Below are positions 1-5,925 of a stretch of DNA of 64,000 nucleotides, one piece after another (position 1 is the first letter of the stretch; the number at the start of each line of letters is the position of its first letter). The translations under genes and the position numbers were made by a program. The stretch spans positions 64,001 to 128,000 of the forward strand of contig CAVPSB010000002.1 in the NCBI GenBank assembly GCA_963708025.1, given 5' to 3'. The notes beneath the pieces are model-generated. The model worked only from the letters and a program-made list of their open reading frames with translations, was not told the origin of the DNA and made no database searches. The DNA comes from an uncultured Candidatus Rokubacteria bacterium. Its GTDB lineage: Bacteria; Methylomirabilota; Methylomirabilia; Rokubacteriales; DASRDR01.

Positions 1-242
1 TCAAGCGCGTCGAGGGTCAGATCCGCGGCCTCCAGCGGATGGTCGAGACCGAGGCCTACTGCGTCGACATCCTCCACCAGGTGGCGGCGGCCCGGGCCGC
101 ACTCCACGAGGTGGGCCGCGCGCTCGTGGGCGGGCACGTCGAGCGGTGCGTCGTGGACGCGGTCCGATCCGGGAGCCGCCGCGACCGCGAGCGCAAGGTC
201 GCCGAGCTGCTGCGGGTCCTCTCGCAGCTCGACGGGGGCTGA
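1..242 (+). CDS. csoR: CsoR/RcnR-family metal-sensing repressor (5'-truncated by window edge)
   Basis: Frame from nt 3 reads [34 protein letters not shown]...HVERCV, the CsoR C-H-C ligand pattern; directly upstream of a Cu P1B-ATPase. Confidence 0.9.
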
Positions 243-345: not shown

Positions 346-2817
346 ATGGCCGCCGAGACCCGGTCGACCGTTGATCTCCCGCTCCGCGGGATGAGCTGCG
401 CCGCCTGCGCGGCCCGGATCGAGCAGGGGCTGGCGACCCTCCCCGGCGTGACGAGTGCCGCGGTCAACTTCGCGGCGGAGCGGGCCACCGTGAGCTTCGA
501 TCCCGCCGCCGTCCACGTGGACCGGCTGATCGGCCGGGTCACCGAGCTGGGCTACGAGGTCCCGCTGGCCCGGCTGACGCTCCCGGTGACCGGGATGAGC
601 TGCGCCGCCTGCGTCGGCCGGGTCGAGAGCGCGCTGCGCCGGGTGCCGGGGGTCACCGAGGCGTCGGTGAACCTTGCCACCGAGCGAGCCCGCGTGGTCT
701 TCCCGGAGGGACGCGTCGCGTTGGCCGACCTCCGGCGGGCCGTGCGGGCGGCGGGGTACGACATCCCCGAGAGCGCGGAAGACGCCGCGGCCGCCACGGC
801 GCCGGACCGCGAGCAGGCGGCGCGCGCCCGGGAGATCGGCCGGCTCCGGCTCAAAGTGATCGTCGGCGCTGCCCTCACGGTCCCGGTGCTGCTCGGCAGC
901 TTCCCGCAGCTCTTTCCGTGGGTGCCGGTGGTCCTGGTCGACCCCTGGGTGCAGCTCCTCCTCACGCTCCCCATCCAGGCCTGGGTGGGCTGGGGCTTCC
1001 ATCGTGGCGCCCTCACCGCGCTCCGGCACGGCGCGGCCGACATGAACACGCTGGTCTCGCTGGGGACCAACGCCGCCTTCGCCTTCAGCGTGGCGGTGAC
1101 CGTGTGGCCCCACGCGCTGATGGCCGCCGGCGGCATGCCCTACTACGACACGGCGGCGGTCCTCATGACGCTGATCGTGCTCGGGCGCTACCTGGAGGCG
1201 CGGGCGAAGGGGAAGGCCTCCGCGGCCATCCGCGCCCTCCTCCACCTGGCGCCCCGGACCGCCCGGGTCGTCCGCGAGGGACGCGAGCTCGACGTACCGA
1301 TCGAGGACGTCGTCCCCGGCGACCTCGTCCGCGTGCGGCCGGGCGAGAAGGTCCCGGTGGACGGCGAGGTGGTCGAGGGCCGCTCGACGCTCGACGAGTC
1401 GATGCTGACCGGCGAGAGCCTCCCGGTGGCGAAGGGGCCGGGCGACCGGGTGATCGGGGCCACGCTCAACCGGACTGGCGGCTTCACCCTCCGGGCGCAG
1501 CGGGTCGGCCGCGACACCGTGCTCGCCCAGATCATCCGGCTGGTCGAGGCGGCGCAGGGCTCGAAAGCCCCGATCCAGCGCCTGGCCGACCGGGTGGCGG
1601 CGGTCTTCGTTCCGATCGTCCTGGTGCTGGCCGGTCTCACGTTCGCCGGGTGGTGGCTCGCGGGCCCGGCGCCGGCGCTCCTGTTCGCGCTCTCCAACGC
1701 GGTCGCGGTGCTGGTCATCGCCTGTCCCTGCGCGATGGGCCTGGCCACGCCGACCGCGATCATGGTGGGCACCGCCGCCGCCGCCGAGCACGGCATCGTG
1801 GTGAAGAGCGCGGGCGCGCTGGAGCTGCTCCACCGCGTGCGGACGATTGTCCTCGACAAGACCGGGACGCTGACCCGGGGCCGTCCCGAGGTCACCGACG
1901 TCCTCCCGCGGGACGGCACGACGGCGGCCGATCTCCTCCGGTGGGCCGCCGGGGTCGAGCGCGGCTCCGAGCACCCGCTGGCCGAGGCGATCCTGGCCCG
2001 TGCCGCCGCCGACGGCGTGACCCCGGCCGGGGCCGAGGACTTCGAGGCGCTGCCCGGACACGGGGTGACGGCGCGGGTCGAGGGCCGGCCGGTGGTGCTG
2101 GGTCACGCGCGGCTGATGACCGATCGGGGGCTCGCGCTCGACGCCCTGGCCAAGGAGGCGGAGCGGCTCGAGGCCGAGGGCAAGACCGCGGTGTTCGTCG
2201 CCGTGGAGGGCGAGGTCCGGGGCCTGGTCGCGGTCGCCGACGTCCTGAAGCCGGAGGCGGCGGCGACGGTGGCCGCGCTCCGCCGGCTCGGGATCGAGGT
2301 GCTGATGCTCACGGGCGACGCTCGCCGGACGGCGGAGGCGATCGGTCGCCAGGCCGGGGTCGATCGCGTGCTGGCCGAGGTGCTGCCCGAGGGCAAGGCG
2401 ACGGAGGTCGAGCGGCTCCAGGCCGACGGCCGGCTGGTGGCCATGGTGGGCGACGGGATCAACGACGCGCCGGCGCTCGCCCGGGCCGACGTCGGGATCG
2501 CGATGGGCTCGGGAACCGACGTGGCGCTGGAGGCGGCCGACGTGACCCTCCTCTCGGGCGACCTTCGGGCCGTCGTCGCCGCGATCGCGCTCTCGCGGGC
2601 GACGCTCCGCGTGATCAAGCAGAACCTCGGCTGGGCGTTCGGCTACAACCTCCTGCTGCTCCCGGTGGCCGCGGGCCTGCTCTACCCTCTGCTGGGCGAG
2701 GCCGGACTGCTCTCGCCGATCTACGCGGGGGCCGCCATGGCGCTCTCCAGCGTGTCCGTCGTCACGAACTCGCTGCGGCTCCGGCGGTTCCGGGCGCCGG
2801 CCGCCCGGCCGGCATGA
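346..2817 (+). CDS. copA: Copper-translocating P1B-type ATPase
   Basis: Two HMA domains (GMSCAAC), TGES, CPC, DKTGT, HP, GDGIND, YN and MxxSS motifs. Confidence 0.95.
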
Positions 2818-4401
2818 CGGCGGCGCTGGTCCGCGCCCTGCTGGTCGCGCTCGCCCTCACCCCGGCCGTCGTCGCCGACGCGTCCCACGTCGTCTACGAC
2901 GACTCGCTGCGCGGCCAGGTCACGCTGGCCCCGGTGGTGGCCGGCGGGGCCGGCGCCCCCGTGCGGGTCGAGGTCCGCTTCCCCGACGGCGCCCCGGCCT
3001 CGGGGCTCGCCGTGCGGGCCGAGGTGTTCCACGGCTTCGCCCGCCGGGTCGCGGTGGCGTTCCTCCCCGATGGTCCGGGCGGGTACGCCGCTCGCCTGCC
3101 GGTGGACGGCGCGGACGGGCTCTGGCAGGGGGTGATCCGCGTCGAAGGTGGGCGCCGCCCCCTCGTCGCCGACATCGCCTTCATTGTGCGGCGCGAGCTC
3201 GAGGCCGACGTCGCCGTGCTCCGGCGCCCGATGGGCTTCCGGCCGGCGGGGGTGTACACCTCGCCGCCCTGGGTCGATCACCTGGTGTGGGCCGGCGTCC
3301 TCGGCATCATGCTGGGCTGCGCGCTGGTCGTCTCCGTGCGGTGGCCGCCGCTGCGCCCGCCATCCTCCGTGCTCCAGCTCCCCGCGTGGGCGACCGCGAT
3401 CGGCGTGGCCGGGGCCCTGGCCGGCGCCGTCGGCGCGTACTGGGACGTCGCCTGGCACGTGGACCAGGGCCGCGAGACATTCTGGAGTCCGCCCCACCTG
3501 CTCCTCTACGGCGGCATCCTCTCGGTCGTGGCGTCGATCGGGCTCGCCCTCCTCCTGGCCCCCGGCGCCTCCCGGCGCGCGGCGCTCCGGCACCGCGGGC
3601 TCCGCTTCGCCGCGATCGCGGGCGCGGCGACGCTCCTGTCGGCGCCGTTCGACGAGGGGTGGCATCGCCTCTTCGGGCTCGACGTCTCGATCTGGTCGCC
3701 CCCCCACCTCGTGCTGCTCTTCGGGTCGGCGCTGGCGATCCTGAGCCTGGCCCTCCTTAACTGTCCGACAGGGGGGGAGTCCCAACGCACTCCCCCCCTG
3801 GACCCCCCCACCTGGGGGTCGGACGGCCCACGGTCACCCGTTCGCGCTCGTGCTCATGGGCGCCGTCGCGCTCCTGATCGTGAACATTTTCGTGCTGGAG
3901 TTCGAGTTCCCGAGCCTCGAGGGCTGGCACGTTCTCCTGGCGCGACCCCGCGGGCTCTACCCGCTGTTCACGACGGTGCTGGCCCTGCTCGTGCTCGGCA
4001 GCGTGGCGCGGGCGGGCGGGCGCTTCGCGGCCACGCAGGCGGCGGCCGCCGCCTGGCTCCTGCGCGCGGCCCTCGGGGTCGCGCTGCTCCCGGCGCTCGG
4101 CCGGAGCGCGCCGCTCTGGCCGCCGCTCTACGTCCTGCCCGCGCTGGCGCTCGACCTCGCGCTGGCGGCGGCGCCGGCGGCCTGGTCGCTCCGGCGGCGC
4201 TACCTGGTGGGCGGGCTGGCGGCGACCGCGGTGGCCTACCTCGGGCACAACGGCGTGGCCGCCCTGCTGCCGGCCCGCGGCGTCCCTCCCGCCGAGCTGT
4301 GGGCCTGGTTCCCGCTCGCGCTCCTCGCCGGCGCCGCCGCCGCGCTGCTGGGGCTCCGCATCGGGATGCTGGCACGGCCCGAAGCCGGGACGCCGGCGTG
4401 A
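2814..4401 (+). CDS. Signal peptide + YtkA/FixH-like periplasmic domain + polytopic membrane protein with PmoC-like D-x3-H-x12/13-H motifs; apparent +1 frameshift at ~3770-3810
   Basis: ATGA overlap with copA; WDVAWH..WSPPH and FDEGWH..WSPPH; hydrophobic reading continues in the next frame (3850..4401) after G7/C7 runs; GTGA overlap with next gene. Confidence 0.7.
3760..3826. repeat. Palindromic element inside a coding region
   Basis: GGGGGGGAGT-cccaacgc-ACTCCCCCCC perfect 10-bp IR, then GACCCCC..GGGGGTC hairpin, bounded by GTCCGAC/GTCGGAC; resembles the arms of the 12291-12579 element. Confidence 0.6.
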
Positions 4402-5925
4402 GCACCGTCCCGCTCGGTGGCGCCCTGAGCCTCGACGACGTCGTCGGGGTCGCGCGCGCCGGCTGGCCCCTCACGCTTCCCGACGAGGCGGAGCGGCGCG
4501 TGGGCCGCGGGCGGGCCTTCGTGGACCGGCTGGCCGACGGCGACGCGCTCGTCTACGGGATCACGACCGGCGTCGGGAAGCTGAAGGACGTCCGCATCCC
4601 GCCCGACGAGCGGCGCGCGCTTCAGCTCAACCTCCTGCGAAGCCACGCCGGCGGGCTCGGTCCCACGATGTCGGCGGCGGAGACGCGCGCCATGTGGTGC
4701 TGCCTCGCCGGGTCGCTCGCGCGCGGGCACTCCGGGGTCCGCCCCGCCGTCGTGCGGCTCCTCGTCGAGTGCCTGAATCGCGGCGTCACCCCGGTGGTGC
4801 CGGAGTGGGGCTCGCTCGGCGCCTCGGGCGACCTGATCCCGCTGGCGCACGCGGCGCTCGTCCTGGTCGGCGAGGGGGAGGCGTGGCACGACGGCCGGCG
4901 CCTGTCGGGAGCCGCCGCGCTCGCTGCGGCGGGCCTCAGCCCGCTCGTCCTCGAGACCAAGGAGGGCCTGGCCCTCCTGAACGGCACCCACCAGATGGCG
5001 GGCGTCGGGGCGCTTCTCCTCGCGGACGCGGTCGCCACGGCGCAGCTCGCCGACGTCACGGGATGCATGAGCCTGGAGGCGCTCATGGGGACCAACTCCG
5101 CGGCCGACCCGCGGATCCACGCTCTGCGGGCCCATCCCGGCCAGGTGGCGGCGGCCGCCAACGTTCGCCGGCTCACCGCCGAGAGCGAGATCATCGCCTC
5201 CCACGCCGACTGCCACCGCGTCCAGGACGCCTACAGTCTGCGCTGCCTGCCCCAGGTCCACGGCGCGACCCGCGAGGCGTGCAGCGTTCGCCCGCTCGAT
5301 CCTCGCCCGGGAACTGGCGAGCGTGACCGACAACCCGCTGGTCTTCGCGGACGACGAGCAGGTCCTCACCGGGGGCAACTTCCACGGCCAGCCGATCGCC
5401 CTCGCGTTCGATGCCCTCGCGCTCGCGCTCGGCTACCTGGCCGGCATCGCCGAGCGACGGATCGACCGGCTGGTCAACCCGCTGGTCTCGGAGCTGCCGG
5501 CCTTCCTCGCCGCCGACCCCGGGCTCGAGTCCGGCTACATGCTCGCCCAGGTCCAGGCGGCGGCGCTTGCCTCGGAGGTCAAGGTGCTCGCCCATCCGGC
5601 CTCGGCCGACTCGATCCCGACGTCCGGGAACCAGGAAGATTTCGTCCCGATGGGGGCGGCGGCGGTCCGGAAGTGCCGGGAGGTGCTGCAGCGGGTCCGC
5701 GCCGTGCTGGCGATCGAGGCGGTGTGCGCGGCCCAGGCCCTGGATTGCCGGGCCCCCCTCCGTCCCGGGCGGGGAAGCGCCGCCGCCCACGCCGCGCTGC
5801 GGCGCCGCGTCCCGCGCCTCGCCGGCGACCGCGTCATCCGCGACGACTTCACCGCCGCCCTCGCGCCGATCGAGGACGGCAGCCTCCTCGCCGCCGTCGA
5901 GGCGGCCGCCGGACCCCTGGACTGA
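4398..5925 (+). CDS. hutH: Histidine ammonia-lyase with apparent +1 frameshift near 5283
   Basis: YGITTGVG, LRSH (His-specificity residues), GSLGASGDL (MIO), QDAYSLRC; removing one A at ~5283 restores REAC-AFARSILARELASVTDNP..GGNFHG..NQED. Confidence 0.85.

Follow-up and report, generated by a model that had tools for sequence, protein, structure and literature searches.

The aerobic oxidation of methane and of ammonia begins with copper membrane monooxygenases (CuMMOs), enzymes with no known origin whose active site was for long a matter of dispute. The ligands that PMC12576850 gives for M. capsulatus are Asp156, His160 and His173 for the CuC site and Asn227, His231 and His245 for CuD, with Arg165 nearby. 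A passage of PMC11725843 describes the pocket holding both sites as the active site of particulate methane monooxygenase (pMMO), and an excerpt of PMC13058606 gives AmoC six transmembrane (TM) helices. Here we describe a gene that appears to join counterparts of PmoC and PmoA in one chain. It stands third in the order csoR, copA, fused gene within a 64,000-nt stretch (the window, G000:C2:64001-128000) of a Rokubacterial genome of 8.17 Mb in 49 contigs, whose phylum includes PmoC-bearing, Methylomirabilis-like genomes.

The gene occupies 2814..4401 on the + strand, in two frames in the assembly and as 528 codons without base 3787. We give a probability of roughly 0.58 to the reading that its ~528-residue envelope product is a single-chain C–A relative of CuMMOs that is CsoR-controlled and binds copper. 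It has in common with PmoC/AmoC (PF04896) the motifs D-x3-H-x12-H and (D/N)-x3-H-x13-H, with the same spacings, as well as an Arg that follows the first His by five residues and a P-x-H ahead of each distal His; in both, a duplicated helix hairpin bears the two metal-ligand triads at its ends. Unlike PmoC/AmoC, to which it is about 15% identical, it is joined to an A-like domain and has Asp, not Asn, as the first ligand of the second site; its gene lies outside any xmoCAB operon, flanked by csoR, copA and a lyase gene. With PmoA/AmoA (PF02461) it shares a six-helix domain, a collinear profile alignment, an acidic-aromatic-acidic motif on D-W-D and P-A-x-x-x-D on P-x-A-x-x-L-D, although the acidic motif is only partly kept.

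The membrane core compared with PmoC and PmoA

The product consists of a signal peptide, an immunoglobulin-like (Ig-like) periplasmic domain, one TM helix and a ten-helix membrane core. For the first four core helices (3384..3761, +), hhalign, VIA Z scores and weak Pfam AmoC matches all point to the last four helices of PmoC; the N-terminal helix pair of PmoC has no counterpart, and four of six helices correspond (model residues 1–144, hhalign columns 131–220). An earlier reading of this DNA from its letters (the sequence-only reading) had proposed the motifs D-x3-H-x12-H and D-x3-H-x13-H, and we found both: WDVAWH-x12-H spans nt 3441–3497 and FDEGWH-x13-H spans nt 3648–3707. The first supplies a CuC-like triad of D211, H215 and H228, with R220 at the position of PmoC Arg165 (3444..3497, +), and holds the complete CuC ligand pattern Asp-x3-His-x12-His. 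The second supplies a CuD-like triad of D280, H284 and H298 (3651..3707, +); it retains both His residues at the same spacing, with Asp as the first ligand where 36/36 PmoC/AmoC sequences have an invariant Asn. In a membrane-only alignment of 69 relatives with 18% mean column identity, these six D/H columns are the only invariant ones (69/69), and the motifs are not due to chance; the Arg is present in 63 of the 69. Conservation of the D/H residues among relatives, which had been proposed as a check, thus extends to every aligned sequence.

Comparison of the family with PmoC by hhalign returned P 9.3e-4 with 7 PmoC rows, 3.3e-4 with 36 PmoC rows and 69 family rows, and 1.6e-4 with 185 family rows; the N-terminal half alone reached P 5.7e-5 at a probability of 66%. 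The PmoC profile combined sequences from genomes of the phylum with 34 diverse PmoC/AmoC sequences from the protein database. Alignment was ligand on ligand, with motif 1 on D131/H135/H148 and motif 2 on N202/H206/H220 of Methylomirabilota PmoC. AmoC was a weak Pfam match in 9/69 members (best E 4.3e-4), and no other family recurred in more than two; the two halves of the window protein gave no AmoC match at E ≤ 1, and a search of the window's own genome gave no PF04896 match. We consider it likely that the first four core helices are a remote homologue of PmoC.

The last six core helices (3826..4398, +, frame B) pair with PmoA by hhalign and VIA Z. Against a profile of 36 PmoA/AmoA sequences, the family gave P 5.5e-4 over 115 columns and the C-terminal half alone 4.8e-4, the comparisons ranging from P 4.8e-4 to 5.9e-4 at probabilities of 29–32% over 115–118 columns. 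An E-F-E motif at the outer end of helix 5 (3898..3906, +) aligns with the invariant D-W-D of PmoA, and the Asp of P-A-L-A-L-D (4153..4155, +) with the invariant Asp of P-x-A-x-x-L-D. The acidic motif is less well kept than the triads (E in 43/69 members, then E or D in 39/69); the Asp position holds D or E in 55/69, and its counterpart D127 is invariant in the PmoA/AmoA alignment. A PmoA-like echo (GAT, P-A-x-x-L-D, GG) had been picked out by eye, and hhalign arrived at the same register. Control comparisons showed the pairing to be specific and collinear, the first half matching only PmoC and the second only PmoA: crossed comparisons gave P 0.017 (N-terminal half against PmoA) and 0.77 (C-terminal half against PmoC), reversed profiles P 0.25 or more, and 40 block shuffles per template produced nothing at P ≤ 1e-3 (minima 0.027 and 0.03). 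The last six core helices are probably a remote homologue of PmoA, a judgement we hold a little less firmly than that on the PmoC-like half.

Predicted structures bear on both halves. In searches with a model of the full-length homologue P0009 (512 residues; predicted local distance difference test, pLDDT, 80.8), the only listed match to the membrane part was the energy-coupling factor (ECF) S-component 5edl_A (Z 10.3). Because the beta domain filled the match lists of this model, with no pMMO or ammonia monooxygenase (AMO) chain among them, we folded the membrane-only family member P0074 (69 aligned sequences; pLDDT 92.2, predicted template modelling score 0.91). Foldseek against the PDB returned the AMO/pMMO chains 9pxf_G, 9cl6_B, 9leg_A, 4phz_B and 7ev9_B at probabilities of 0.97–1.0. 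Structural re-alignment, which covered Foldseek's 1000 best chains, placed pMMO/AMO chains (218–274 residues) in 12 of the 13 top rows with Z 12.2–13.6, seven of these 12 covering P0074 residues 140–347 only; in the best A-type case, 7s4l_B, 167 residues aligned with a root-mean-square deviation (rmsd) of 2.8 Å (Z 13.4, chain residues 24–244). Residues 123–270 of 7yzy_C, a range that contains both PmoC copper sites, superposed on P0074 residues 1–144 (Z 9.2, rmsd 3.2 Å, 141 aligned). Chain letters, lengths and residue numbers suggest that the matched chains are A subunits and that 7yzy_C is PmoC. The proposed fold comparison with pMMO/AMO structures therefore favours the proposal for both the C-terminal and the N-terminal half, as remote homology and not as proof, and with unrelated helical folds reaching similar or higher Z scores. 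The signal peptide would place the beta domain outside and the following helix would lead the chain back inside; the triads and the acidic motif would then lie at outer helix ends, with Arg-rich loops inside. The copper sites of PmoC also lie toward the periplasmic side. Together, the best profile matches of the two halves and the models support the earlier proposal of a distant fused relative of CuMMOs, at the level of remote homology.

A repeat copy and a frame change between the halves

In the assembly the gene runs in frame A from 2814 to about 3786 and in frame B from about 3788 to 4401. The change falls in the linker between the two halves, within a 67-nt copy of a short palindromic repeat (3760..3826, no strand assigned) recognized from own-genome matches and its inverted repeat; the repeat core lies at 3769–3819 and includes a perfect 12-bp hairpin at 3769–3800. 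From the orientation argument, the loop that bears the repeat would be cytoplasmic. A 121-nt query around the repeat found 41 places in the genome, itself included; blastn-short gave 34 repeat matches, and the 28-nt core occurs 34 times with at most 3 errors. The repeat has short (~51 nt) and long (~116 nt) forms, is rich in G7/C7 and folds into two tandem hairpins; other copies lie, for example, at G000:C18:366490-366557, C25:462274-462389 and C22:95426-95483. Compared with the copies read, the window carries an extra G at 3787 (+), the source of the +1 frame change; in the other copies read through the site the sequence is CCCAAC-CACTCC with no such G, one of them having a different base nearby. 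Once G3787 is removed, a single frame stays open through 528 codons, and its end matches frame B exactly. The sequence-only reading called for the frameshift to be corrected; the site sits in a repeat copy and is not a plain error to be assumed away. An assembly indel and a real recent mutation at 3787 seem to us about equally likely.

The state of the loop differs among relatives. P0004 (89% identical) has no element and P0003 (83%) has the outer arms only, whereas the window has a full copy. Contigs from four soil sequencing runs (four studies), ~97% identical to the gene (9 differences in 337 nt), enter the element from the gene and stop at 3786. These relatives share the insertion, entering the element at one and the same position, which makes it older than the strain and suggests that it is tolerated. 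Nearly all soil-run contigs covering 3787 lack the G, and these are mostly other repeat copies, with a summed depth of 100–1000. No run contained more than 0.45 of the sampled words, so the source strain was not found among the runs.

These observations frame the alternative that the gene is dead in this genome, that is, that G3787 is real, the gene is out of frame after its PmoC-like half and the organism relies on two intact membrane-only paralogues (C34:169113-169760 and C13:495606-496235). Besides the frame change in the assembly and the existence of those paralogues, two facts favour it: P0003, the closest relative in the database, likewise breaks off a short way past this loop, and the next gene, encoding a lyase, is frame-shifted too. 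However, a pair of frame changes in 1.6 kb, with no long homopolymer at either site, is also what assembly indel errors would look like; both halves are otherwise free of stops and, like intact homologues, align end to end with the family, at 61–64% identity to P0009; the G is absent from the repeat copies read; and the ~97% identical relatives in four soil runs have the same insertion. We regard a dead gene as a tentative reading with somewhat less than even odds. As a separate candidate we considered expression of the second half alone from GTG 3850, a natural C/A split, and rejected it as the main reading because frame A has no stop before 6383.

The fused gene ends in a TGA at 4399–4401 that overlaps GTG 4398, the start of the lyase gene. 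That gene (4398..5925, +; aromatic amino-acid lyase, HAL/PAL-type) is split by a frame change near 5280–5320, with Lyase_aromatic profile positions 1–287 (E 4.2e-113) and 302–465 (E 3.6e-59) in two different frames. Being the second frame change within 1.6 kb, it raises the question of assembly indel errors. Gene maps show that the lyase gene is not kept beside orthologues of the fused gene.

Copper genes and the periplasmic domain

Upstream of the fused gene lie the 3' part of csoR (1..242, +; Pfam Trns_repr_metal, E 9.4e-24) and copA (346..2817, +), whose 823-aa product is a P1B-type copper ATPase containing a CPC motif and two HMA domains (Pfam E1-E2_ATPase 3.1e-61, Hydrolase 1.5e-38, and HMA 2.3e-32 in two stretches). 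CsoR, a metal-sensing repressor, has the residues C...H-x3-C, and its gene starts at an ATG at C2:63940, 60 nt upstream of the window. The fused gene starts at ATG 2814–2816, sharing bases with the copA stop TGA at 2815–2817, just as the sequence-only reading had described for this ATGA overlap. A TACCC-N5-GGGTA pseudopalindrome, TACCCCCCGAGGGTA, lies at C2:63921-63935, 4 nt upstream of the csoR ATG, and is kept with a different spacer in L066 and L010, both orthologous csoR-bearing loci. The abstract of PMC3902906 describes CsoR operators as G-tract pseudopalindromes. The three features looked for in a CsoR-regulated copper efflux operon are therefore present, namely a repressor of the CsoR family, a copper ATPase of the P1B type and, as predicted operator, a G/C-tract pseudopalindrome.

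Copper genes accompany the close, beta-domain-bearing orthologues in 4/5 distinct loci, the window's own locus counted. In G107 and G045 (L010 and L086) csoR comes first, followed by a PF09948 gene (PpoB2, 'copper chaperone'; E ~1e-64), copA and the orthologue; in G146 (L009) a PpoB2-type gene lies directly 5' of the orthologue, without csoR or copA. Copies of this membrane-protein gene were located at L066:3697-4530, L010:2047-2886 and L009:5081-5908. It is missing from the window locus, and a 54%-identical copy lies elsewhere in the same genome (C10:220085-220831). In the csoR-copA clade, the protein probably binds copper at the outer membrane face.

Ahead of the membrane core, residues 1–23 form a signal peptide (2814..2882, +) ending in A-D-A, with Ser24-His25 after the predicted cut site; a His stands at this cut or one residue after it in 13/14 full-length sequences, P0011 being without it. 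There follow a periplasmic Ig-like beta-sandwich domain (2883..3248, +; strands 33–145 in the P0009 model) and a TM helix (3270..3335, +; helix 153–174 of that model) that would bring the chain back to the cytoplasmic face. In structural comparisons the beta domain comes closest to CrdA, a copper-resistance protein of H. pylori (Z 10.3, rmsd 2.1 Å, 91/108 residues aligned), and complement, filamin and invasin Ig-like domains, which are unrelated to copper, score Z 9–10, close to CrdA. Foldseek returned CopC/PcoC at E 0.04–0.05 and the cbb3-complex chain 9g6b_C at probability 1.0. FixH/CcoH belongs to the fixGHIS (ccoGHIS) cluster, beside the copper ATPase FixI, and the fused gene resembles it in encoding a membrane-anchored beta domain beside a P1B ATPase; it differs in that all FixH (PF05751) matches fall below the 23-bit cut-off (14.8, 14.0 and 15.4 bits in three proteins, E 0.019–0.05; the window protein's own match has E 0.029 and 14.8 bits) and no cbb3 oxidase genes were seen beside the fused gene. 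Of the YtkA/FixH-like beta domain behind a signal peptide that had been proposed, the signal-peptide-like N-terminus and the all-beta region of the P0009 model hold up and FixH persists as a sub-threshold likeness, whereas no YtkA match was listed.

The locus has no pmoB by sequence, in agreement with the sequence-only reading. Against a profile of four near-identical PmoB sequences the beta domain gave hhalign P 0.08, with only the signal-peptide/His region aligned, and PmoB chains were absent among the 50 structural rows listed for the full-length model; with its conserved His at the cut site, the domain may be likened to the first PmoB domain in arrangement only. In 5/12 public-genome loci (L011–L014, L018), a separate gene lies 3' of the membrane-only form. 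Gene reading placed this partner (474–550 aa) at L011:7157-8704, L018:7053-8624, L014:7104-8552, L013:7128-8552 and L012:6870-8522, in Acidobacteriota and a proteobacterial metagenome-assembled genome (MAG); its product has a signal peptide followed by a His, a beta domain, a pair of helices and a His-rich domain bearing H-x-H-P-like motifs, an arrangement that recalls PmoB. The first domain of the partner aligns weakly with the window beta domain (hhalign P 0.0016–0.004). The acidobacterial partner gave P 0.26 against the same four-sequence PmoB profile, and the L011 protein, the sole partner copy scanned, had no Pfam match.

A periplasmic beta sandwich and a polytopic His-bearing membrane domain among copper-homeostasis genes are also what CopC-CopD and YcnJ offer, though the membrane domain here resembles PmoC and PmoA instead. 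The fused protein may be an analogue of CopC-CopD, PcoC-PcoD or YcnJ that sequesters or transfers copper beside CopA, with no oxygen chemistry. PmoC/PmoA ancestry could then be real yet uninformative on activity. The copper proteins that head the structural matches of the beta domain (CrdA, and CopC/PcoC by Foldseek) fit such passive handling, and so does the company of csoR and copA in the operon, joined in orthologues by a gene for a copper chaperone of the PpoB2 type. However, neither CopC nor CopD gave a Pfam match in the window protein or the relatives scanned; Ig-like domains that have nothing to do with copper score nearly as well as the copper proteins; most family members have neither a beta domain nor copper neighbours; and two adjacent invariant triads with an Arg would seem to resemble an active site more than a transfer site. 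We therefore hold purely passive handling to be possible but unlikely.

The wider family and the proposed role

The family is large and named nowhere. Intact homologues have 499–541 residues at 42–66% identity, are all called hypothetical and carry no Pfam domain. A family profile search of 1.84 billion cluster representatives (50%-identity clusters) found 2558 proteins at E ≤ 1e-3, 1193 at E ≤ 1e-10 and 95 at E ≤ 1e-30. Three architectures occur: the membrane domain alone (~320–400 aa), with an N-terminal beta domain, or with a C-terminal helix, beta domain and helix; most members have no beta domain. The NCBIfam library gave no match for the window halves or seven relatives, Pfam has no model covering the membrane domain, with 0 families matched by the C-terminal half of the window protein, and in the protein atlas the family clusters are all 'hypothetical protein' without Pfam families. 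By every family threshold tested, the fused protein is outside the known CuMMO families. Our search of the literature outside subscription journals listed no description of a PmoC/PmoA-like family, whether fused or stand-alone. One member, P0073 (612 aa), has a C-terminal Polyketide_cyc2 (SRPBCC lipid-binding) domain (E 2.4e-8), which hints at a hydrophobic ligand.

Within the phylum, matches at E ≤ 1e-10 occur in 82/201 genomes, or 80/199 without the two unpublished genomes G058 and G101. Members were found in 72/125 genomes of family f2 and in 6/16 of the window's own family f1 (G000 not counted); none of the 18 genomes of family f6, which supplies 9/10 PmoC-bearing genomes, had a match. Relatives also occur in Rokuibacteriota, Acidobacteriota, Chloroflexia and a proteobacterial MAG, and scanning metagenomes for the close clade brought in two short contigs and a duplicate of one known locus, and nothing more. 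Tandem or close-set pairs of members lie at G134:C12:29943-32840, G002:C73:15734-19925, G024:C141:8705-12629 and G140:C108:78611-80724. G028, of the same order as the window genome, has three fused-family members and a divergent pmoC-pmoA pair (L030, G028:C365:5680-6357; L035, G028:C365:6592-7248), with E 4.3e-48 and 4.1e-55 and ~35% identity to the Methylomirabilis type.

Several results weigh against a copper-binding CuMMO relative under CsoR control. One close relative, on a 2.5-kb contig with 446 nt upstream, has no copper gene there. Linkage of homologues to copper genes, proposed as a check, holds for the close orthologues and fails in the wider family, where copA or csoR lies within ~7 kb in 0/28 loci (10 from public genomes, 16 from the phylum and the window genome's two paralogues); for this reason copper is not established as the metal of the family. 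Genes of many kinds surround the wider-family members (altronate dehydratase, PIN, sugar-nucleotide enzymes, Wzi, ADH, hydrolase), and those that recur look like synteny of related genomes rather than functional partners. No member reached the AmoC gathering score of 26.7 bits (P0079 scored 14.8 bits), the 25 families listed at E ≤ 10 for the 69 members did not include Pfam AMO, a point of difference from PmoA/AmoA, and a profile search of PDB sequences with the full-length alignment A1 gave no match at E ≤ 10. The hhalign probabilities are just 30–66%. Foldseek with P0074 returned nothing from the PDB at E ≤ 1e-3, the AMO/pMMO chains standing at E 0.2–0.5; in a Foldseek-independent search, unrelated four-helix bundles reached Z 10–13 on the first half, above the 9.2 of PmoC; and ECF S-component 5edl ties with PmoA (Z 13.3, rmsd 5.0 Å, 177 residues). 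Lastly, the fused gene is out of frame in the assembly.

The threshold-level negatives, the scores of 5edl, of RibU (Z 10.7) and of four-helix bundles of any origin, and the wider family's lack of copper context would also suit a convergent or generic likeness, in which an unrelated polytopic metalloprotein, such as a zinc-dependent membrane hydrolase or a metal/vitamin transporter, has an ECF S-component-like C-terminal half and a duplicated helix hairpin that carries D-x3-H...H by chance, but we judge this the least probable of the alternatives given two independent profile matches to two subunits of one enzyme in C-then-A order, the exact ligand register with the extra common Arg and P-x-H, uniformly negative crossed, reversed and shuffled controls, an rmsd of 2.8 Å over 167 residues for A-type chains versus 5.0 Å for 5edl, and AmoC as the sole recurrent weak Pfam match.

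The architecture, conservation, remote similarity and synteny are observed directly, whereas the identity of the metal as copper, the orientation and any catalysis are inferred. If the fused protein is a single-chain, copper-binding C–A relative of CuMMOs, csoR, copA and the fused gene would be co-transcribed from a CsoR-controlled promoter, and a rise in cytoplasmic Cu(I) would lead to the fused protein being made. CopA would export Cu(I), and the fused protein would take one or two copper ions at its outer-leaflet D/H/H sites, perhaps via the beta domain. The bound copper might be held, or used with O2 as an oxidase whose substrate could be Cu(I) itself or a membrane-soluble compound. In this genome the gene carries a repeat copy in the loop with an extra, frame-breaking base, and it would be either freshly inactivated or mis-assembled.

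A bolder version of this proposal, which we rate as speculative and distinctly unlikely, is that the protein is a complete minimal one-chain copper membrane oxygenase, with the His-first beta domain in the role of the first PmoB domain, the copper pocket of PmoC and a half for the substrate that resembles PmoA, and with the beta domain as a separate partner gene in other phyla. It would be a deep sister or ancestral-type form of pMMO/AMO and, in the Rokubacterial csoR-copA clade, a copper-induced, O2-using oxidase at the outer membrane face that acts on Cu(I) or a lipid-soluble substrate. If that were true, conservation of the CuC/CuD pocket alone would argue for the pocket as the ancient catalytic centre.

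For the single-chain relative of CuMMOs that we favour, the significance lies in a protein currently annotated as hypothetical everywhere, from a family that occurs in organisms not oxidizing methane or ammonia. Because a single chain contains just the PmoC pocket and a PmoA-like half, it would offer an outgroup for studies of CuMMO evolution, and the family independently backs the PmoC pocket as the conserved core. Expression and mutagenesis should be much easier with one gene than with an enzyme of three subunits. The csoR-copA-linked clade, for its part, points to an unrecognized component of bacterial copper stress responses.

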